Positions 3 through 23,486 of a stretch of DNA of 32,000 bases are shown here, piece by piece. Source of the stretch: Kiritimatiella glycovorans (lineage in GTDB: Bacteria; Verrucomicrobiota; Kiritimatiellia; Kiritimatiellales; Kiritimatiellaceae); NCBI RefSeq assembly GCF_001017655.1, contig NZ_CP010904.1, positions 2,550,001 to 2,582,000 of the forward strand. Direction: 5' to 3'. The notes below the pieces were generated by a model. That model was not told where the DNA came from. It searched no databases and saw nothing but the letters and a program-made list of their open reading frames with translations. Position 1 is the first letter of the stretch; each line of letters opens with the position of its first letter. Position numbers and translations under genes: made by a program.

Positions 3-1652
3 GCCGCGGCGCCCCGCTATATCGAGTGCCGGCTGACCGAGCTGGCGCGCGCGGAGGTCTTCAACCCGGACCTGACCGAATTTGTGCCGAGTTACGACGG
101 ACGCAAACAGGAACCGGTCACGCTGCCGGCCAAAGTCCCGCTGCTGCTGATGCTCGGCGCGGAGGGCATCGCGGTGGGCCTCTCCACCCGCATTCCGTCG
201 CACAATTTCATCGAGCTGCTCGAGGCCCAGATCGAAATCCTCAACGAGAAGAAATCGTCCCCCGCCGCAATTCGCCTCCTGCCCGATTTTCAGTCGGGCG
301 GCCTGATGGACGCCTCGGAATACGAAAAGGGGCGCGGCAAACTCAAGCTGCGGGCACGCATCGAAAAACGCGGCAAGGGACGTCTGGCGGTCACGGAACT
401 GCCGGCGGGCCAGACCACCGAATCGCTGATCTCCTCCATCGAAGACGGCGTGAAAAAGAAAAAGGTCCCCGTCCGCAGCATCAGCGACTACACCTCGGAG
501 AAGATCGAGGTAGAGCTGGTGCTGAACCAGGGCGCGGACCAGGACCGCGCGATCAAGGCGCTGTACGCGTTCACTCACGCGGAGGTCTCGCTCTCGTGCC
601 GCCCGGTGGTGATCCATCACCGGCGACCGCGCGAAATGGATACGGAGGAGATTCTCCGGGAGAACACGTCCCGCACGCTTGACCTGCTCAAACAGGAACT
701 CGAGCTGCGGCGGCATAAACTGACCGAGGAGATCCACGCCAAAACCCTCGCCCAGATCTTCATCGAAAACCGCCTCTACAAGAAGATCGAGGAGTGCACA
801 ACCTGGGACGCGGTACGCAAGGCGGTGTTCAAGGGGCTCACGCCGTTCCGCGACCGGCTCACGCGCGACGTGACGGACGAGGACGTCGACATGCTGCTGG
901 CGATCCGCATCCGGCGCATCTCGCGGTTCGATATTGAAAAGAACCAGCAGGACATCGAGAAGCTGGCGAAGGAGCTGGCGGAGGTCGAAAAGAACCTCCG
1001 CAACCTCAAGGCCTACGCCGTCCGCTATATCAAGGCCCTGATCAAGAAGTACCGGACCCGCTTCCCCCGCCGTGCGGAGGAGACGACGTTCCAGGAGATC
1101 GAGGTGCGCAAACTTACCTCGCGCGAACTGAAGATCCATCTCGACACGGAAAAGGGGTATCTCGGCAGCCAGGTCAAGGGGGACCCCGTGCTGGAATGTT
1201 CGTCGCTCGACAAACTGATGATTTTCTTCGGCGACGGCCGCTACCGGGTGATGCCGCCTCCGGACACGCTGTTCGTCGACGACCAGCTCTCCTACTGCGG
1301 CAAGTACGATCGCGAGGCCGTCTTCACTGCGGTGTATACCGAGGAGGACAACACGTACGTGAAGCGCTTTGCCGTCGGAGGCGCGATCATGAACCGCGAC
1401 TACCGGTTTGCCCCGGAAGGCGCGAAGGTCATCCTGTTCGAGCCGGGCGAGCCGGACAGGATCTACGTAAAGTACCGCAAACGGAAGAAACAGCGGATCA
1501 ACCAGCAGGCCTTCGATCTGACCGGGCTCGACCGCAAGGGCGCCCGGGCACGCGGCAAGCGGATGACGACCAAACCCGTCGACCGCATCGCCACCGAACC
1601 GGGCCGCTGGTGGAAGACGGACGAGGATTCGCCCGACGGGGTGCTGCTTTAG
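3..1652 (+). CDS. parC: DNA topoisomerase IV subunit A / GyrA-ParC family, 3' portion (5' end lies upstream of the window)
   Basis: The reading frame is open from base 3 (AAAPRYIECRLTELAREVF...), so the GTG at 84 is not the real start. The RY(I/T)E.RL motif is followed by a long C-terminal region (...FFGDGRYRVMP...YVKRFAVGG...) typical of ParC-type A subunits. Stop at 1650-1652. Confidence 0.8.
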   Translation, partial: AAAPRYIECRLTELARAEVFNPDLTEFVPSYDGRKQEPVTLPAKVPLLLMLGAEGIAVGLSTRIPSHNFIELLEAQIEILNEKKSSPAAIRLLPDFQSGGLMDASEYEKGRGKLKLRARIEKRGKGRLAVTELPAGQTTESLISSIEDGVKKKKVPVRSISDYTSEKIEVELVLNQGADQDRAIKALYAFTHAEVSLSCRPVVIHHRRPREMDTEEILRENTSRTLDLLKQELELRRHKLTEEIHAKTLAQIFIENRLYKKIEECTTWDAVRKAVFKGLTPFRDRLTRDVTDEDVDMLLAIRIRRISRFDIEKNQQDIEKLAKELAEVEKNLRNLKAYAVRYIKALIKKYRTRFPRRAEETTFQEIEVRKLTSRELKIHLDTEKGYLGSQVKGDPVLECSSLDKLMIFFGDGRYRVMPPPDTLFVDDQLSYCGKYDREAVFTAVYTEEDNTYVKRFAVGGAIMNRDYRFAPEGAKVILFEPGEPDRIYVKYRKRKKQRINQQAFDLTGLDRKGARARGKRMTTKPVDRIATEPGRWWKTDEDSPDGVLL

Positions 1653-4896: not shown

Positions 4897-5284
4897 CGTT
4901 CGGGTCTCAGGTCTCAGCCCTCCCACTCAACCCCTGATCCCCTCTTACTCAGGTTTCAGGTTTCAGCCCTCCCACTCAATATCCAATCCCCTCTTACTCA
5001 GGTTTCAGGTTTCAGCCCTCCCACTCAACCCCTGATCCCCTCTTACTCAGGTTTCAGGTTTCAGCCCTCCCACTCAACCCCTGATCCCCTCTTACTCAGG
5101 TTTCAGGTTTCAGCCCTCCCACTCAACCCCTGATCCCCTCTTACTCAGGTTTCAGGTTTCAGCCCTCCCACTCAACCCCTGATCCCCTCTTACTCAGGTT
5201 TCAGGTTTCAGCCCTCCCACTCAACCCCTGATCCCCTCTTACTCAGGTCTCAGGTTTCAGCCCTCCCACTCAATATCCAATCCC
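4893..5284. repeat. Tandem array of 8 x 49 bp (consensus CTCTTACTCAGGTTTCAGGTTTCAGCCCTCCCACTCAACCCCTGATCCC)
   Basis: Unit starts at 4893, 4942, 4991, 5040, 5089, 5138, 5187 and 5236. Units 3-7 are identical, and units 1, 2 and 8 are variants. The array spans from the ispA stop to 4 nt before the lpxB stop. Confidence 0.95.
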
Positions 5285-5288
5285 CTCT

Positions 5289-6428
5289 TCATCTGCCCAC
5301 GTCCCGGATGATCAGCCGTGCGACGTTTTCTTCGGGCAGCGAGGCGGTGTCGAGCACCGTCCAGATCTCCCTGAAGATCGCGCGCATGGTGCCGCGCAGG
5401 TCGTCATCGTCGAGCAGTCGTTCGACCGCCTCGGACAGTCGGCCGGGGGTGGCCTTTTTCTGGATGAATTCGGGACACACCTCGCGGCCTGCGACCAGGT
5501 TGACGATACCGAGATAGGGCACGCGGATGAGCATCCGGCCGAGCAGGTAATTGAGCCAGTGGGTCTTGTAGACGACGGCGGTCGGGCACTCGAACAGGGC
5601 GCTCTCGAGCGTCGCCGTACCGGACGCCACGAGGGCCGCGTCGGCCTGGCGCAGCACCTCGCGGGTCGAGCCGGCCACGAGTTCGGCGCCGCGCACCGCC
5701 CCTCCCAGCGCGTCCCAGATCTGCTGCGCGGTCTCCTGCTGCCACCGGGGCACGGAGATCAGGAATCCCGTTTCGGGGCGGCGACGGCGGAGCTGCAGCA
5801 CGGTCTGACGAAACACCGGCAGCAGGTAGCGCAGCTCCTGCCGGCGGCTTCCCGGCAGGAGCGCGATTCTTCGCTCGCCGGGCCACGGCATCGGAACCGG
5901 ACGGCTCTGCCGGTGTTCGCAGATCTCCTCGACGAACGGGTGCCCGACGAAATCCACATTCAGGCTCGTTCCGCGAAACACGTCGGGTTCGAAAGGGAAG
6001 ATGACCATCAGCCGGTCGATCGCTTCAGCCATCCGGCCGATACGTCCGCGATTCCAGGCCCAGACCTGGGGGGAGATGTAGTAAAAGACCTTCACGCCGC
6101 GGCGTTTGAGCTGCCGCGCGAGGCGCAGGTTGAAGCCGGGGTAGTCGACCAGCAGGGCGGCCTCCGGCCGGCGGGCCTCGACCTCGTCGAGTACGTGCCG
6201 GAAGACCCGGCGAAAGAAGGAGAGTCGTTCCAGCACCTCCGAGATCCCCAGCACCGCCATGTCGGAGACGTCGTAGAGACACTCCATCCCTTCGGCGCGG
6301 CACGATTCACCGCCGACCCCCCAGAGCGTCCAGTCCGCACCGCGCCGCCGGAGGGCCTTGAGCACCCGTCCGACGTGCATATCGCCCGACTCTTCGCCGG
6401 TCACTACCAGCAGGTTATCCTCGGCCAC
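5289..6428 (-). CDS. lpxB: Lipid-A-disaccharide synthase
   Basis: 379 aa. N-terminal VVTGEESGDMHVGRVLKAL and the hallmark SPQVWAWNRGRI motif. Confidence 0.9.
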   Translation of the reverse strand: MAEDNLLVVTGEESGDMHVGRVLKALRRRGADWTLWGVGGESCRAEGMECLYDVSDMAVLGISEVLERLSFFRRVFRHVLDEVEARRPEAALLVDYPGFNLRLARQLKRRGVKVFYYISPQVWAWNRGRIGRMAEAIDRLMVIFPFEPDVFRGTSLNVDFVGHPFVEEICEHRQSRPVPMPWPGERRIALLPGSRRQELRYLLPVFRQTVLQLRRRRPETGFLISVPRWQQETAQQIWDALGGAVRGAELVAGSTREVLRQADAALVASGTATLESALFECPTAVVYKTHWLNYLLGRMLIRVPYLGIVNLVAGREVCPEFIQKKATPGRLSEAVERLLDDDDLRGTMRAIFREIWTVLDTASLPEENVARLIIRDVGR

Positions 6429-10995: not shown

Positions 10996-11060
10996 TTATT
11001 TTCTGGTTCTTCTGGATTTTTGTCACGAATAACCAAAATCCATTGGTACGGAGAACGCCT

Positions 11061-11100
11061 TTCTTACTCAGGGTTCAGCGCTCACGCTCAGCCTCAGTCC
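11061..11100. repeat. Solo, diverged member of the CTTACTCAGG(T/G)TTCAG repeat family
   Basis: TTCTTACTCAGGGTTCAGCGCTCACGCTCAGCCTCAG abuts and overlaps the PP2C gene stop codon (11094-11096). Confidence 0.55.
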
Positions 11101-13284: not shown

Positions 13285-13968
13285 TCATGAATTTTCCGGC
13301 CCCAGGATGAGTACGCACTCACCCTTGAGCTTGCGGTCTGCGAGTGCGTCGCGCAGTTCCGCGGCTTCGGCGAGCCGGGTCTCTTCGTAGAGCTTGGTCA
13401 GTTCGCGGGCGAAAAAGACCGTGCGGTGATCGCCGCACACCGCGGCCACGTCCTTGAGAAGCGAGAAGATCCGGTACGGCGATTCGTAGAACACCACCGG
13501 AAGTTCCGTATCCTTCCAGCGTTCCAGCTCGCGCCGGCGCTTCGCGGGCTTGCGCGGCGGGAATCCCGCGAACACGTGTCCGCGGTCGCCGAACCCGCTC
13601 AGGGCCAGGGCCGTGCTCACGGCGGTGGGCCCGGGGATGCAGGTCACGAAGAGGCCCGCCTCCCTGCAGGCGCGGACCACGCGCGCGCCCGGGTCGGAGA
13701 CCGAAGGCATCCCGGAGTCGCTGACCAGCGCCACGGCCTCGCCGTCGTCCCGAATGCGACCCAGCACCGCCTCGACCCTGGAGGCCTCGTTGAACCGGTG
13801 GCAGCTCACGGCGGGGGTCTTCAGCTCAAAGCGTGACAGCAGTTTCCGCACCCGCCGCGTGTCCTCGGCAAAGACCACGTCCGCCGCCCCCAGCACCTCG
13901 CACCCGCGGGGCGAGAAATCGTCCAGATTCCCGATCGGCGTCCCTATAATGTACAGTCCTCTATCCAT
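13285..13968 (-). CDS. rsmI: 16S rRNA (cytidine1402-2'-O)-methyltransferase
   Basis: LYIIGTPIGNLDDFSPRG and SDSGMPSVSDPG signatures. I prefer the ATG at 13968, because the ORF-track extension to 14073 is read through a dispersed repeat. Confidence 0.88.
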   Translation of the reverse strand: MDRGLYIIGTPIGNLDDFSPRGCEVLGAADVVFAEDTRRVRKLLSRFELKTPAVSCHRFNEASRVEAVLGRIRDDGEAVALVSDSGMPSVSDPGARVVRACREAGLFVTCIPGPTAVSTALALSGFGDRGHVFAGFPPRKPAKRRRELERWKDTELPVVFYESPYRIFSLLKDVAAVCGDHRTVFFARELTKLYEETRLAEAAELRDALADRKLKGECVLILGPENS

Positions 13969-14056
13969 TTCCACGGCCTCAGGAGAACATAAAAAAGGGG
14001 CGAGTAAAAGCGCGGCCACGAAAAGGCACAAAAAATGTAGACGGGGGACAAAACCG

Positions 14057-14198
14057 GCCACGAAAGGGCACATAAAGCACAGAAGAGCTATAGGACAGGG
14101 CTACTCAGGAGAGCAGAAGAGGAACAGGGCCGGTCACCTCTGATCCCGTCTCCCGGCATTTCTCCATTTCTTCTGAGTCTTTTGTGCCCTTTCGTGGC
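14057..14198. repeat. Imperfect palindromic cassette d (arms built from the dispersed 20-mer)
   Basis: GCCACGAAAGGGCACA at 14057-14072 versus TGTGCCCTTTCGTGGC at 14183-14198 match 16/16. The arms extend imperfectly to about 30 bp (CAGAAGAG / TCTTCTGAG). Confidence 0.8.
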
Positions 14199-14230
14199 TC
14201 TCTATCTCCTCTGAGCCTTTTGTGCAGCAG

Positions 14231-14362
14231 TTCTCATTATGGCCGCATTCCGACCGCGGACGGCGTGGCAGCCGTCCCTCCCGAGTCGATATCCGACGCC
14301 TTTTTGGGCATTGGGAGGGTCGGGTGCCACCCCGACCGAAAAGGGTGAAGCCATAATGAGAA
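14231..14362. repeat. Imperfect palindromic cassette a with two internal hairpins
   Basis: Arms TTCTCATTATGGC (14231-14243) and GCCATAATGAGAA (14350-14362) match 13/13. Internal hairpins are GGACGGC-GTGGCA-GCCGTCC (14258-14277) and GGTCGGG-TGCCAC-CCCGACC (14318-14337). CCCTCCC (14276-14282) can also pair with GGGAGGG (14313-14319). Confidence 0.85.
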
Positions 14363-14428
14363 TCGCTGCCTTTTGTGAGTTCTTCGTAATTTTTATGGTG
14401 AGCGGCGGCAAGTCCGCTCGCGTCAAAA

Positions 14429-14547
14429 CGTACGCGTACTCGTACTCAGCGAAGCGGTACTCGTACTCGAATTCCTTGAATCGGGGGAGGGGGATCGCGC
14501 CTTCGGCGCTCCGAGTACGAGTACGAGTACGAGTAAGAGTACGAATT
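14429..14547. repeat. Palindromic cassette b built from GTACTC / GAGTAC hexamer runs
   Basis: GTACTCGTACTC occurs at 14437-14448 and 14457-14468. It faces GAGTACGAGTACGAGTACGAGTAAGAGTAC at 14513-14542. A small central hairpin GCGCC-TTCG-GCGC lies at 14497-14509. Confidence 0.8.
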
Positions 14548-14744
14548 ATGTTCACCCCCCCTCAACCAACCTTCATGCTCTTCATGTGAAGGTAGGGACG
14601 GACCTCCGAGCCATCCGCAAAACCGGCGCGCTTAGCCTGTCCGCCGAAGGCATAAAGGGCCGAAGGCGGAGAGATCGCGCCCCACCCGGAAATCGCAAAG
14701 ATGAATGAGAAGAGCACAGGCAAAGAAATGGTGCGTTCTCTCTT

Positions 14745-14844
14745 ACGTTCGTAGTAGGCCCGCAGGTCCGCGCAGCGGACAAGGGCCGTTACGCTCACGC
14801 GCCCGGCCTGCCGAGGGGCAGGCGTGCGGCGCTACTACGAACGT
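14745..14844. repeat. Imperfect palindromic cassette c with two internal hairpins
   Basis: Arms ACGTTCGTAGTAG (14745-14757) and CTACTACGAACGT (14832-14844) match 13/13. Internal hairpins are GTCCGC-GCA-GCGGAC (14766-14780) and CCTGCC-GAGG-GGCAGG (14807-14822). The right arm contains the maf stop codon. Confidence 0.8.
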
Positions 14845-15506
14845 TTGTCGTCTTCCATCCCGCCTCTTCCCCGAACGGCTCCACCACAAAAATCTGCGAA
14901 GAACCCTTTTGTGCCTTTTCGTGGCCCGTCCCTTTTCTGCGCCTCTTCGAGGCCTTCGACGACCTCGCAGAGCGGGAGGCCCACGACGTTGGTATACGAT
15001 CCGCGAATCGCGCGGACCATCGGCGCCGCGCCGCCCTGAATGCCGTACGCCCCCGCCTTGTCCATCGGCTCGCCGGTGCGGACATAGCGCTCGATCTCTG
15101 CCGCCGTCAGGGTTTTGAATTCGACCTCCGTAGACACGGAGAATGTTTGTTCGCGTGCTCCGGCGAGGATACACACGCCCGTGATCACGCGATGGGTGCG
15201 GCCGGAGAGCCGGCGGAGCATCGCCGCGGCCTCCCGCCCGCCGGAGGGCTTGCCGAGGATATCTCCGCGGTGAGCGACCACGGTATCCGCCGCCAGCACG
15301 ACCGCATTCCCTGGAGCCGCGACCGCGCGCGCCTTCTCTGCGGCGAGCCGGAGGGCGTGCGCTTCGGGCCCCTCTCCGGCGAGCGCCGCCTCGTCGATCG
15401 CCGGAACCGCGACCCTGAAGTTCAGGCCGAGCTGTTTGAGCATACGGCGCCGCCGGGGCGAACCGCTCGCGAGCACGAGTTCGAGTTCCGCAAGATGCTC
15501 AGACAT
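14835..15506 (-). CDS. maf: Maf-family nucleoside triphosphate pyrophosphatase
   Basis: LVLASGSPRRRRML and KAGAYGIQGG signatures. I prefer the ATG at 15506 (MSEHLAELELVL...), which overlaps the ROK gene stop by 8 nt. The C-terminal 25-30 residues are read out of repeat sequence. Confidence 0.88.
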   Translation of the reverse strand: MSEHLAELELVLASGSPRRRRMLKQLGLNFRVAVPAIDEAALAGEGPEAHALRLAAEKARAVAAPGNAVVLAADTVVAHRGDILGKPSGGREAAAMLRRLSGRTHRVITGVCILAGAREQTFSVSTEVEFKTLTAAEIERYVRTGEPMDKAGAYGIQGGAAPMVRAIRGSYTNVVGLPLCEVVEGLEEAQKRDGPRKGTKGFFADFCGGAVRGRGGMEDDKRS

Positions 15507-16461
15507 GCTGCGTCCCGGAGAGGCCCGCCAGGGCCACGGCCAGCGCGCCGCGTTCACCCAGCCGGTCGAGGCGGGTGACCTCGAGCCGACACCCGTCGTA
15601 GACGGGCTTCCAGGTATACGCCTTGAGCCTGGCCCGCAGGTCGTCCATCACCAGATCCTCTTCATGCATGGCGATCGTGCCCAGCACGGCGGCGGCCGGG
15701 TTGAAGGCCATCAGGATCGAACCGACGCCCTGGGCCATCCGTTCCATGTACTCGTCCCACCGCTCGAGCGCGTACGGGTCCCGGCGGCGCACGGCCGCGG
15801 AAAACTCGCGCATGGAGATGCGCGCCGGATCCCCGCCCGCCTCTTCGAGGATCAGCGTATCGATATGGCGGTCGACGATCTCCGCGCGCAGCCGGTCGGC
15901 CGTGGCGCGCCCGCCGCAGTAGGCCTCGAAACACCCTTTCAGCCCGCAGGAACAGGGCAGACCGTCGAGTTCCAGCGTGATGTGACCGATCTCTCCGGCG
16001 TTGTCGTTGACTCCCTGCAGGATACGGCCGGAGGAGATGATGCCTCCGCCGATGCCGGTGCTCATGGTCAGGTAGATGAACGGATCGGCTCCCGCGCACG
16101 CGCCGAACATCCACTCCGCCAGCGCCGCGGCGTTGGCGTCGTTGTTCATGTAGACGGGCGCGTCGAAGCGCTCCCTGAGCAGTGAACCGAGGTGCAGCCC
16201 GGACCAGTCCATGTTGGGGCTTGTGAGCATCCGCTGCCCGTGGCAGTCGAGCGGGCCCGGCGCGGAGACGCCGACCGCCTTCAGCCCGTCCGGCGCGTGG
16301 CGGCGGATCAGGGGGTCAATGAGTTCCGTGAGCCTGCGAAGGGTATCCTCGCCGTCCCCGGGGTCGGTCGGCACCCGCACGGCATCCAGAAGCGTGCCCT
16401 GCTCGTCGCCCACCGCGGCCGCTGTTTTGGTCCCGCCAATATCAATGCCTGCAATTGCCAT
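15499..16461 (-). CDS. ROK-family sugar kinase (glucokinase / N-acetylhexosamine kinase type)
   Basis: 320 aa with IAGIDIGGTKTAAAV and the ROK zinc motif CSCGLKGCFEAYCGG. Confidence 0.88.
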   Translation of the reverse strand: MAIAGIDIGGTKTAAAVGDEQGTLLDAVRVPTDPGDGEDTLRRLTELIDPLIRRHAPDGLKAVGVSAPGPLDCHGQRMLTSPNMDWSGLHLGSLLRERFDAPVYMNNDANAAALAEWMFGACAGADPFIYLTMSTGIGGGIISSGRILQGVNDNAGEIGHITLELDGLPCSCGLKGCFEAYCGGRATADRLRAEIVDRHIDTLILEEAGGDPARISMREFSAAVRRRDPYALERWDEYMERMAQGVGSILMAFNPAAAVLGTIAMHEEDLVMDDLRARLKAYTWKPVYDGCRLEVTRLDRLGERGALAVALAGLSGTQHV

Positions 16462-17431: not shown

Positions 17432-17839
17432 ATGATACGTCCAGCCAAACGGGAAGCCCTGCAGCGGGAGATGACGTCGCTCGGTATCGAGGAGAGCGAC
17501 CTCGAGGAGAGTTTCATTAAAGGCTCCGGAAGCGGAGGGCAGAAAATCAATAAGACCTCCTCGTGCGTGCAGCTTCGCCATATCCCCAGCGGGATCGAAG
17601 TCCGCTGCCAGCGGTCCAGATCGCGCGCCGACAACCGGTATTTCGCGCGCCGCGAACTCTGCCGCAAGATCGAGGAACAACGTAAGGGCGAAAAAAGCGA
17701 GAAACGCAGGGAGATCGAAAAAATACGCCGCGCGAAGCGGCGGCGCTCACGCCGGGCCAAAGAACGGATGCTTCAGAACAAAAAACACCAGGCGGAGAAA
17801 AAGCGGCGGCGGCGTGAGGGAGGTGAGTATTTTGAGTGA
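17432..17839 (+). CDS. Small GGQ-motif peptide chain release factor-like protein (RF-1 domain / ArfB-like peptidyl-tRNA hydrolase)
   Basis: Only the last 135 codons of the 542-aa plus-strand ORF look real. They read GSGSGGQKINKTSSCVQLRHIPSGIEVRCQ followed by a long Lys/Arg-rich tail, with the ATG at 17432. Confidence 0.75.
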   Translation: MIRPAKREALQREMTSLGIEESDLEESFIKGSGSGGQKINKTSSCVQLRHIPSGIEVRCQRSRSRADNRYFARRELCRKIEEQRKGEKSEKRREIEKIRRAKRRRSRRAKERMLQNKKHQAEKKRRRREGGEYFE

Positions 17840-17959
17840 GAGACCTGAGACCTGAAACTTGAGTAAGAGACCCCTTCACTCAGGTCTCCCACTCATTTCT
17901 TACTCAGGTCTCAGGTCTCTTCACTCAGGTTTCAGGTCTCAGGTTTCCCACTCAACTCT
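17834..17959. repeat. Cluster of the CTTACTCAGGTYTCAGG repeat family in inverted and direct orientation; possible bidirectional terminator
   Basis: GAGTGAGAGACCTGAGACCTGAAACTTGAGTAAGAG (17834-17869) is the imperfect reverse complement of TTCTTACTCAGGTCTCAGGTCTCTTCACTC (17898-17926). Further direct partial units run to 17959. The cluster fills the gap between two convergent stop codons. Confidence 0.8.
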
Positions 17960-21386: not shown

Positions 21387-22586
21387 ATGAAGATTAAATA
21401 TAAAAGAGCCTATTTTGACGTCCTGCTGGAAAGGCTGCAGGGTCCGCGCCGTTTCATTCAGATCCTGTTCGGTCCGCGTCAGGTTGGGAAAACGACCCTC
21501 ATCGGCCAGGTCCTTGAGGCGACGGACCGATCGTTCGTTTTTGCCGCAGCCGATGCCGAGGCCCGTGCAGACCGCTTATGGGTGGCCCAGCAATGGGAAC
21601 GGGCTCGGCTGAAGGCGCAACGGCATCCCGACCAGACCATCCTGCTCGTGCTGGATGAAATTCAAAAAATCAGCAACTGGAGCGAAACCGTCAAAAAGAT
21701 GTGGGATGAGGACTCGCGGACCGGTTGCGCCATTCAGCCGGTGTTGCTGGGCTCATCCGCCCTGCTACTCCAGAAGGGAATGTCGGAATCGCTCGCCGGA
21801 CGATTCGAACTGATCCGCGTTCCGCATTGGTCGTATTCAGAAATGCGTTCGGCGTTCGGCATCACGCTGGATCAGTACATCTATTTCGGCGGCTATCCCG
21901 GGCCGGCGGAGCTGCTTTCCGACGAATCGCGCTGGAAGCAATATGTGCGCGATGCGCTCATCGAACCGGCCATCACGAAGGACGTCCTGCTCATGACGCG
22001 CATCGACAAACCCGCCCTGCTTCGCCAACTGTTTCATCTCGGCGCCGTCAACTCCGGAAGGGTGATCTCCTACACCAAACTGCTGGGGCAGCTCCAGGAC
22101 GCCGGAAACACCACTACGCTCGCCCACTATCTGGAACTGCTGGATACCGCGGGGCTGCTCTGCGGACTGCAGAAATTCACGGCAAACACGATCCGTACGC
22201 GCGGATCGAGCCCAAAACTTCAGGTACACAACACGGCCTTAATGTCGGCATTGAATCCGGATCCCTTTGAAACCGTCCGGGAAACCCCCGACCGGTGGGG
22301 ACATTTTTTCGAATCGTCGGTGGGGGCGCATTTAACCCGTATGGCCTTTGAACACGGGCTCGGCCTTTTTTACTGGCGACACGGGAATGATGAAGTCGAC
22401 TTTGTTCTCACCCGCGAAAAGCGGCACCTCGCCATCGAAGTCAAAAGCGGCCGGAAACGAGATGCACTGAACGGGCTGAAAAAGTTTAACGCGCAATTCA
22501 CGCCACACCGGACCCTGGTGATCGGGACCGGCGGAATGCCTGTCCGGGAGTTTTTCGAAACCCCGGCTCACGCCCTGTTCCAATAG
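21387..22586 (+). CDS. AAA+ ATPase with a C-terminal DUF4143 (PD-(D/E)xK-like) domain
   Basis: 399 aa. Walker A GPRQVGKTT and Walker B LLVLDEIQ. The C-terminal DEVDFVL...LAIEVKSGRK resembles a restriction-endonuclease-fold motif. Visibly lower GC than its neighbours. Confidence 0.85.
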   Translation: MKIKYKRAYFDVLLERLQGPRRFIQILFGPRQVGKTTLIGQVLEATDRSFVFAAADAEARADRLWVAQQWERARLKAQRHPDQTILLVLDEIQKISNWSETVKKMWDEDSRTGCAIQPVLLGSSALLLQKGMSESLAGRFELIRVPHWSYSEMRSAFGITLDQYIYFGGYPGPAELLSDESRWKQYVRDALIEPAITKDVLLMTRIDKPALLRQLFHLGAVNSGRVISYTKLLGQLQDAGNTTTLAHYLELLDTAGLLCGLQKFTANTIRTRGSSPKLQVHNTALMSALNPDPFETVRETPDRWGHFFESSVGAHLTRMAFEHGLGLFYWRHGNDEVDFVLTREKRHLAIEVKSGRKRDALNGLKKFNAQFTPHRTLVIGTGGMPVREFFETPAHALFQ

Positions 22587-22688: not shown

Positions 22689-22744
22689 GCAACAGCCGCT
22701 CTACGACCTGATCCATTGATCGGGGGTCCCGATTCGGAAGTCAG
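22689..22744. repeat. 56-bp direct repeat, copy A (5' leader plus first codons of a DUF4338 gene)
   Basis: Identical to 23431-23486 except for 2 adjacent bases. On the minus strand it encodes MDQVVERLLLE-stop (22681-22716). Confidence 0.9.
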
Positions 22745-22916
22745 AGAAAGCGGTTCGATTACGTGTATCCGGGTAAGTGTTGCGGTGAAGAATGCGGTTA
22801 AGGGTTCGTGGAAGGGCGCAGTCCACACTTCAGCGGACCCTTCGTCGCCCACTTAACCGCCACCTTTACTCGGATACGCTTAATCGACCCGTCTTAAACG
22901 GCCTGTCACGGCGTGG

Positions 22917-23458
22917 TCACGAACGGGCCGTGAGCATGGAGTAAGCTTTGGAGGGGTCGGCAGCGACGCCCTCAACGAATCCGGTAAGGGTGGAGTGAGC
23001 TTGCTGTTCATTGAAGAAGAACAGCGCCAGATTTCTGAGCATGGCAAGCGATGCCACGATGGCAGGGTTTCGACTGCGGGTCTTGTCTTCGAGCAGACAG
23101 GCATCCTTGCGCCAGGGGTTGCGGCTTTCGATACCCCCCCCAGTGTCCGCGAATGAGTTCAAGCCAGGTTCGGATGCGCCCCACGATCAACCAGCAGTGT
23201 GAAACGCCGATTCTGCACAATCAGCTTCTGACGCAGGGCGCGTTGAGGGCCGCTCCAGCCAATATAGGCGTCGCGATCCTTCAGCCGATAGGCCGCTGAC
23301 CCCCAGAGAAACAAAGCCATCCATTCACCATAGGCCTCCACCAACCGCATGGTATCCCCGCCGGCATGTCCTTCTCCCATGTAGTGGAACTTCCCGGCCA
23401 ATTCCTTGATATGTTCGGCCCGAAAACATTGCAACAGCCGCTCTACGACCTGATCCAT
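22917..23458 (-). pseudogene. Chimeric remnant: DUF4338 N-terminal fragment joined to the C-terminal end of a DDE transposase (ISAs1/IS4-like HW.IE...ED..R motif)
   Basis: 23458-23159 encodes ...HYMGEGHAGGDTMRLV...RDAYIGWSGPQRALRQKLIVQNRRFTLL...HPNLA-stop (DUF4338 pattern). 23165-22917 encodes ELIRGHWGG / IESRNPWRKDACLLEDKTRSRNPAIVASLAMLRNLAL, split between two frames at an 8-C run (23134-23141). Confidence 0.65.
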
Positions 23459-23486
23459 TGATCGGGTATCCCGATTCGGAAGTCAG
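23431..23486. repeat. 56-bp direct repeat, copy B
   Basis: See copy A. The two copies are 742 bp apart. Confidence 0.9.

Follow-up and report, generated by a model that had tools for sequence, protein, structure and literature searches.

The window analysed here, i.e. the whole stretch of 32,000 nucleotides taken from Kiritimatiella glycovorans (contig NZ_CP010904.1, positions 2,550,001 to 2,582,000), contains a long gap between the genes maf and rsmI that is filled with inverted repeats, and it is the make-up and origin of this gap that are discussed below. The order is maf, gap, rsmI, with both genes on the minus strand. Downstream of the inserted DNA lies rsmI (13285-13968, minus strand; Pfam PF00590), which encodes the 16S rRNA C1402 2'-O-methyltransferase; its product is 100% identical to the RsmI of K. 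glycovorans, the next relatives reaching only 60-63%, and its start (MDRGLYIIG) pairs with the Tichowtungia start (MDAGLYIVG) in the alignment. On the other side, the Maf-homologous part of maf covers 14940-15557 (minus strand), with 61% identity to the Tichowtungia Maf in BLASTP. This homology stops at ...GLEE, around window position 14940, and therefore the last ~34 codons of the maf open reading frame (ORF; 14835-14939, minus strand, with the stop TAG lying within an arm of the palindrome referred to below as cassette c) are a read-through into repeat DNA. The GC content is 0.54-0.59 over 14001-14800, compared to ~0.65 in the surroundings. No tRNA was found in the 32-kb window.

A first-pass annotation had identified the flanking genes as maf and rsmI, which holds, and all the inverted repeats that it listed were found again, namely four palindromic cassettes (d, a, b and c, in its lettering) and small hairpins at 14400-14419 and 14640-14669. 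As it had supposed, the ORFs of the stretch look non-coding, and none of them has a match in Pfam. Its gene-free stretch, ending at 14834, is too short: the non-genic DNA reaches ~14940, which makes the true gap ~970 bp. That gaps in the window are mostly below 100 bp is roughly true, but the window has further long repeat-filled gaps of 392, 213, 289 and 555 bp. All four cassettes fold strongly (z = -5.0 to -10.2 on either strand, with 0/200 shuffles as good), and 13969-14930 as a whole folds with z = -14; the fold strength of the cassettes is equal on both strands.

The insert proper measures 913 bp (14014-14926) and its ends form a perfect 20-nt inverted repeat (14014-14033 / 14907-14926). 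Comparison of the maf-rsmI spacing in relatives had been proposed as a check by the annotation. In Tichowtungia aerotolerans the genes follow in the same order (maf-rsmI-STAS-GAF/SpoIIE), with a maf-rsmI gap of 0 bp in which the maf stop TAA overlaps the rsmI ATG, and in a second relative only 4 bp lie upstream of rsmI. On this comparison the whole insert is lineage-specific and missing from the orthologous Tichowtungia junction. When 14014-14926 is deleted in silico, the Maf ORF runs to a TGA that stands 10 nt ahead of the rsmI ATG; this is consistent with an old operon junction (weak evidence when taken alone).

The outer inverted repeat is made of the same motif as one of the cassettes it encloses. 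This 20-22-nt motif, GGCCACGAAAAGGCACAAAA(GG), is present in four copies (0 expected), all in this gap, running forward at 14014 and 14056 and in reverse at 14178-14199 and 14905-14926. The outermost pair is the perfect 20/20 inverted repeat, enclosing 873 nt; its left arm, L1 (GGCCACGAAAAGGCACAAAA..; 14014-14035, plus strand), matches 14907-14926 at 20/20 positions. Its right arm, R1, is found in two halves, of which the inner lies at 14199-14224 and the outer (TTTTGTGCCTTTTCGTGGCC) within 14905-14926 (minus strand); this fourth copy of the motif is translated in the Maf tail as GPRKGTK. The inner pair belongs to cassette d (14056-14199), of which it makes up the arms; d is a complete hairpin of 144 bp whose arms consist of three tandem units, GCCACGAAAG GGCACATAAA GCACAGAAGA, and it sits in the loop of the older, outer hairpin. 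Its inverted repeat (14057-14198) has a 16/16 core that extends to 30-nt arms at 87%, and it folds with z = -7.5 on the minus and -5.0 on the plus strand. Both d arms have the variant AAAGGG in common and both outer arms AAAAGG, and the spacing between outer and inner arms is 42 nt on the left (L1/L2) and 38 nt on the right (R2/R1). The arm motif of d matches a family of hairpins that recurs across phyla (the GCCAC family, described below), and a degenerate GCCAC-like unit, 70% identical to the motif, lies in the 3' end of maf (14934-14953, minus strand).

Cassette a (14225-14368) is 144 bp long and has 19-nt terminal inverted repeats (TIRs), CAGCAGTTCTCATTATGGC / GCCATAATGAGAATCGCTG. The repeat that had been listed for it (14231-14362, 13/13) extends to 20-nt arms at 90%, its body is fully hairpin-forming (z = -8 / -10), and it has no ORF with a Pfam match. 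Its TIRs are abutted by a perfect 9-bp target-site duplication (TSD), CCTTTTGTG, at 14216-14224 (where it ends the inner half of R1) and 14369-14377 (plus strand). This 9-mer occurs exactly three times in the 32 kb (14216, 14369 and 14905), in one orientation, against 0.12 expected, and its copies stand exactly at the borders of a and of a second, larger element, e (14378-14904): the second copy is at once the right flank of a and the left flank of e, and the third (14905-14913) overlaps the outer half of R1. Element e is a 527-bp non-coding sequence, without a match in Pfam, that contains cassettes b and c and small hairpins; it is bounded by imperfect TIRs of ~30 nt, AGTTCTTCGTAATTTTTATGGTGAGC / GCTCCACCACAAAAATCTGCGAAGAAC (14378-14410 / 14870-14904), in which ~27/36 positions match at the inverted termini, and flanked on both sides by CCTTTTGTG. 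Because of its inverted ends and the 9-bp duplication, e is probably a second non-autonomous element.

Within e, cassette b (14429-14547; fold z = -6.9 / -5.8) forms a hairpin in which GTACTC / GAGTAC hexamers are repeated in tandem along the arms (7 hexamer-pair matches versus 0.01 expected), and it has an inner GCGCC-TTCG-GCGC tetraloop hairpin at 14497-14510. Cassette c (14745-14844; 13/13 arms, fold z = -5.0 / -6.2) consists of a 13-bp closing stem (ACGTTCGTAGTAG) and a 5-bp stem around three small GC hairpins. GTAG stands at both of its outer ends, beside small GC hairpins, and its 10-mer CGTTCGTAGT recurs in GTAG-tagged hairpin dimers inside some of the metagenomic relatives of cassette a. 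A likeness of c to repetitive extragenic palindromic (REP) sequences is, on these features, a lead at most. Around b and c only 2-nt matches were found in the search for TSDs, and none around d or the outer hairpin.

The position of the three 9-mers allows a and e to be taken out on paper. Joining 14199-14223 to 14913-14926 yields a 39-nt arm of which 33/39 positions are colinear with the right arm of d (24/39 in the un-excised control), and the last 20 nt of this rebuilt arm are the perfect complement of L1. Since excision rebuilds the arm, a and e are therefore insertions in the right arm of the older hairpin, each of which duplicated CCTTTTGTG. Such repeated use of a single 9-bp target suggests that the hairpin arm offers a preferred landing site.

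The ends of cassette a are far from unique to this locus. Its 20-nt end, GCAGCRRTTCTCATTATGGC, was found in at least 120 metagenome contigs, with ~4 expected by chance (an estimate), and the TIRs in the window match the family consensus at 18/19 positions on each side (i.e. one mismatch each). These contigs hold 58 short TIR pairs of 46-400 bp (median 134 bp), of which 27 have perfect 9-bp TSDs and 43 have TSDs matching at 7 or more of 9 positions; the TSD sequences are diverse. The copies have different flanks and one contig (L241) carries four of them; there is no second copy of cassette a within the 32-kb window. With its TIRs, its 9-bp TSD and its small, non-coding and multi-copy nature, cassette a is demonstrably, as far as sequence can tell, a miniature inverted-repeat transposable element (MITE) of a widespread family, that of the CAGCAATTCTCATTATGGC-TIR / 'ISNCY' insertion sequence (IS).

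Autonomous elements of 2574-2589 bp have the same TIRs as a and carry two ORFs, one DruA-like and one for a transposase (L134 378-2958, L244 639-3227, L245 214-2788 and L247 1991-4564). The DruA-like ORF matches PF14236 (E = 4e-31). The second encodes a ~443-aa protein with an RWKIENE...LK signature and weak similarity to IS4 and DDE_Tnp_1_assoc, below curated cut-offs; more than 7,900 proteins are related to it at E <= 1e-20, and those that carry a name in their source, one of them from a Kiritimatiellaeota metagenome-assembled genome, are called 'ISNCY family transposase'. Two further candidates were rejected as autonomous copies, L207 (which holds housekeeping genes between separate MITEs) and L182 (which is decayed). 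Judging from the shared ends, the family of cassette a is mobilised in trans by this ~2.6-kb ISNCY-type IS, which combines a DDE transposase with a DruA-like protein.

Some further observations concern this IS family. In the IS copies examined, the transposase is always paired with the DruA-like ORF (Druantia DruA, PF14236), and the relatives of the ISNCY transposase are mostly found on contigs of ~2.5-3 kb; these short contigs suggest that the IS family breaks metagenome assemblies. The core of one MITE subfamily (L164, L169, L192, L200, L207 and L239) holds a GTAG-tagged hairpin dimer (..CTGAACTACGAACGCCG..CGGCGTTCGTAGTTCAGGCTTCAGCC..), which looks like a REP-like doublet within a MITE. In the window itself, 8 kb from the gap, two 56-nt direct repeats that are 96% identical and 742 bp apart (22689-23486) surround decayed sequence with a DruA/DUF4338-like fragment (23192-23434, minus strand; Pfam E = 5e-5, ~30% identity in tblastn to the DruA-like proteins of the cassette-a IS); this is probably, going by that similarity, the remnant of a related IS. 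It adjoins a lone gene of lowered GC (21387-22586, plus strand, GC 0.55-0.59) for an AAA_14 + DUF4143 ATPase, and together the two look like a small horizontally acquired island.

The motif in the arms of d and of the outer hairpin belongs to a second and quite different family. The 19-mer GCCACGAAARGGCACAWAA was found at 120 or more loci in species-representative genomes, compared to ~17 expected, and almost all of the matches listed have A at both degenerate positions, followed by RGCACAAA. Among the matches listed, most hosts belong to Acidobacteriota (Pyrinomonadaceae, Blastocatellia), Planctomycetota and Verrucomicrobiota, with a few from Abditibacteriota, Geobacter, Chloroflexus, Lentisphaerae and one from Kiritimatiellia. 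The arms consist of 2-4 tandem units of 9-10 nt (GNCACRAAA) that are not self-complementary. An inverted partner arm lies within 290 nt in 73/127 instances, giving a median element of ~96 nt, and the loops are unrelated between copies, even within one genome. Many loci have extra copies (2.26 arms per 10 kb versus 0 in shuffles), and in one of them two distant arm copies occupy successive intergenic spaces of a single dap operon (L022). A MITE of the IS630/Tc1-mariner type would have a TA target duplication and TIRs in common with an autonomous element. TA flanks 28/64 left and 29/64 right ends of the GCCAC hairpins, TA being self-complementary and the flanks often continuing the palindrome; the copies in the window are flanked by G/C rather than TA, and no autonomous element was seen among the loci examined.

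With respect to genes, the GCCAC hairpins stand between tandem ORFs in 26 cases, convergent ORFs in 14 and divergent ORFs in 3, the median distance from the preceding stop codon being 17 nt; among single arms in tandem contexts, neither orientation relative to transcription prevails (8 versus 10). No linked gene family recurs among the 120 loci (the recurrent neighbours are merely ABC transporters, GFO/IDH/MocA oxidoreductases, pseudopilins and TonB-type receptors) and no gene for RAYT, the Y1 transposase that mobilises REPs, was seen near any copy. In three orthologous Pyrinomonadaceae loci, which had been chosen for the exact motif, one arm is 100% conserved and the rest of the spacer differs, the flanking coding DNA being 80-87% identical. 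The 120 GCCAC-motif genome loci gave no BLASTN match with the window at E <= 1e-5, and Rfam gave no match on the GCCAC hairpins of 16 other loci. The GCCAC motif has six matches in viral contigs; all but one of the viral matches to this motif and to the TIRs of e lie in unrelated sequence without features of either family. Full-text searches of the literature for the motif sequences returned chance matches or nothing.

GCCAC arms also occur outside hairpins. They are found, without a partner arm, in head-to-tail arrays of related words that each begin with TTAGCCAC, and at several loci in Planctomycetota and Acidobacteriota (L016 3440-3620, L070, L096 and L119) they adjoin arrays of 9-11-nt words with the core CCAC(A/G)(A/G)A, e.g. 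CCACAGATTA, CCACGAATGAACACGAATTT and CCACGGAGAACACGGAAAC, which points to a superfamily of word-repeat modules. At two loci (L022 4984-5024 and L064 ~514-560) the arms overlap the 3' ends of ORFs and are translated (..SHEKAQKAQK..), like the Maf tail, and therefore protein C-termini in these phyla may often be repeat-encoded. An Acidobacteriota contig (L107) has two inverted matches to Acido-Lenti-1 RNA above the gathering score (1425-1469, minus strand; 1551-1595, plus strand) among clustered short GC-rich hairpins, another hairpin family that crosses phyla.

Taken together, the maf-rsmI gap probably arose through successive insertion, in which small non-autonomous palindromic elements entered one another. 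Starting from adjacent maf and rsmI genes in one operon, a ~80-bp hairpin repeat of the GCCAC family would have arrived at the junction, after which a second member of this family, cassette d, would have come to lie in the loop of the first; a and the 527-bp e would then have entered the same 9 bp (CCTTTTGTG) of the right arm, one after the other. At least two of these insertions would have been the work, in trans, of a DDE transposase that leaves 9-bp duplications. A pile-up of MITE- or REP-like elements was among the suggestions of the first-pass annotation, and it is the one favoured by the TIR family, the 9-bp TSD, the autonomous IS, the empty orthologous junction and the outcome of excision. 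The suggestion of a landing site was partly right, in that one 9-bp target has been used twice and elements lie inside an older hairpin repeat. The anatomy given there has to be revised: the four cassettes, described as independent, placed one after another, unrelated in their arms and each equipped with two inner stem-loops, are in fact nested, being enclosed by the 20/20 repeat and by the ~30-nt repeat of e, and the arms of d carry the same motif as the outer repeat; both the enclosing repeats and this kinship had been missed.

Several findings weigh against successive insertion as an account of every layer. No relatives of e or of the arms of b and c were present in 1.36 Mb of fetched loci, and the two matches to the termini of e, in viral contigs, have no element features such as a partner terminus, so that the mobility of e, b and c is argued from their inverted repeats, with a TSD for e alone. 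The GCCAC hairpins have no TSD and their flanks often extend the palindrome; with loops that are unrelated as well, they could therefore spread or arise by a route other than the cut-and-paste mechanism of MITEs. Matching TSDs are lacking in all four autonomous IS copies examined, for which chimeric metagenome assembly may be responsible. Finally, two hits on the same 9 bp need a strong preference, and the TSDs of the family show only a weak C...G.

The insert and its repeat families can be compared with several known kinds of repeat. The closest are MITEs derived from IS elements with DDE transposases, which, like a, have the TIRs of an autonomous IS, a 9-bp TSD, a small size, no ORF and many copies; the IS of cassette a differs in being unclassified and in having a DruA-like/DUF4338 ORF, and the cores of its MITEs vary by subfamily. 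IS4-type elements are an example of elements with 9-bp duplications. The layer-in-layer build, which can be peeled by means of target duplications, is that of the classic nested insertions of maize, although those are retrotransposons and these are non-autonomous bacterial elements of ~100-500 bp. Similar mosaics of palindromic units within one intergenic region are known as BIMEs, i.e. the REP clusters of enterobacteria. In the literature, the nearest match to the GCCAC family is the survey of GTAG/CGTC REPs by Di Nocera et al. (2013; PMC3733652), which defines the REP as an imperfectly palindromic unit of 20-40 bp that bears a GTAG or CGTC tag; beyond that paper, nothing relevant came up in keyword searches on MITEs of these phyla or on ISNCY with DUF4338. 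REPs are placed similarly, mostly downstream of genes and between tandem or convergent ORFs, and they come as singles or as inverted dimers with variable spacers. However, the GCCAC arms do not fit the definition of a REP or REPIN, being tandem direct units that are not self-palindromic (only c remains a candidate), and REP families are usually genus-specific, whereas the GCCAC motif crosses phyla.

The Correia elements of Neisseria, ERIC/IRU and BOX are imperfect palindromes of 70-150 bp with conserved ends, in transcribed intergenic DNA and without a transposase of their own, and BOX elements are in addition modular, with tandemly repeated sub-units. TA stands beside many GCCAC hairpins as it does beside Correia elements, but there it is perhaps part of the inverted repeat, and whereas the whole element is conserved in Correia, ERIC/IRU and BOX, only the arms are conserved in the GCCAC family, the loops being unrelated. 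Among other known structures, an integron attC or CALIN array was rejected on inspection of the ends, since no cassette ends in GTTRRRY; in attC sites, the core sites R''/R' (RYYYAAC ... GTTRRRY) lie at the ends of each imperfect palindrome. A group II intron or other large RNA was dropped for lack of an Rfam match. For the GCCAC arms, a sigma-54 promoter was dismissed for unsuitable spacing, a DnaA box or CIRCE for a resemblance that is only partial, and a Rho rut site for the lack of orientation bias of single arms.

Whether the hairpins now do something at this locus is a separate matter, and it bears on two of the alternatives. The predicted folds are very stable, c folds as a neat multi-helix junction, b has a GCGCC-UUCG-GCGC tetraloop hairpin and the region, lying between co-directional genes, is probably transcribed, all of which would suit a structured non-coding RNA gene or a cis-regulatory RNA of rsmI in b, c or e, with helices under selection. 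Such an RNA is nevertheless highly improbable, and the same goes for the structured small RNA proposed in the first-pass annotation: the covariance models of Rfam 15 have 0 matches in the window at gathering thresholds (and at E <= 10 only sub-threshold look-alikes of plant-miRNA hairpins and one sub-threshold sok fragment), in line with the remark made there that no named RNA family was recognised; folding is without strand asymmetry, as expected of DNA palindromes; the region is missing from the orthologous junction of relatives; no homologues of b, c or e were available in the fetched loci for covariation; and cassette a is equally 'RNA-like' and yet demonstrably a MITE. A rather unlikely but less remote alternative is that the hairpins, however they arose, have been exapted as elements of 3' or 5' untranslated regions and now uncouple rsmI from maf as terminators, insulators or mRNA-stabilising stem-loops, roles that REP, ERIC and Correia elements play elsewhere. 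The insert stands exactly at the gene boundary, and in the wider GCCAC family the position shortly after stop codons, the rarity in divergent promoter regions and the fully conserved Pyrinomonadaceae arm fit the same idea. However, a consensus scan of the region found no canonical sigma-70 promoter and no intrinsic-terminator pattern, the single arms have no preferred orientation, the three conserved loci were selected for the exact motif, and purifying selection against harmful insertions would also leave hairpins after genes.

The remaining alternatives concern how the repeats came about. It is quite unlikely, though in keeping with several features, that the region (except a) grew in place through local duplication, slippage and palindrome extension of GTACTC and GNCACRAAA words: short tandem units make up the arms in b, in d and in the outer hairpin, the nearly equal spacings on the left and right resemble a symmetric duplication, the GCCAC hairpins have neither TSDs nor a common loop sequence, and similar words occur head-to-tail without a partner arm. 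Independent local growth would, however, hardly yield an identical 19-mer in many phyla, the borders of e match the duplicated 9-mer exactly, and a colinear arm returns once a and e are excised. It is very doubtful that the GCCAC arms (TAGCCACGAAAAGGCACAAAA-RGCACAAA, in tandem 9-10-nt units) are a sequence-specific signal shared across phyla rather than transposon ends, which could take the form of a binding-site array for a conserved protein or of an uptake-signal-like sequence under molecular drive. Such a signal would explain the exact 19-mer across phyla, the unrelated loops, the single, paired and arrayed arms, the missing TSD and linked transposase, and the placement after stop codons, where the pairs of Neisseria DUS and Haemophilus USS are also found.

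If successive insertion is accepted, the 0.9-kb structured region is mobile-element debris of an ordinary kind, which should not be annotated as an RNA gene, and the annotated C-terminus of Maf is an insertion artefact. A formerly tight maf-rsmI operon junction would now be split by ~0.9 kb of strongly hairpin-forming DNA, which, if transcribed, would be expected to fold into stable stem-loops with an effect on read-through or mRNA stability; by analogy with REP, ERIC and Correia elements, a present function in termination, insulation or mRNA stability is plausible. The locus also exposes two repeat families, both surprisingly widespread in environmental bacteria and without a match in Rfam or in full-text sequence searches of the literature: a very abundant MITE family with a ~2.6-kb 'ISNCY' IS that bears a DruA-like gene, and the cross-phylum hairpins of GNCACRAAA units, which merit a separate look. 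Both fragment metagenome assemblies and can be mistaken for small RNAs or terminators.

Elsewhere in the window, the 392-bp gap between convergent genes (4898-5290) is filled by about eight tandem 49-bp units (ACTCAGGTTTCAGGTTTCAGCCCTCCCACTCAACCCCTGATCCCCTCTT). The words of this array (ACTCAGGTYTC) return in an imperfect palindrome at 17832-17955, with 33-nt arms that are 91% complementary, and a separate intergenic gap holds a 29-nt fragment of such sequence (11055-11083). With an array, a palindrome and a fragment that have words in common, K. glycovorans therefore has a word-repeat hairpin family of its own.

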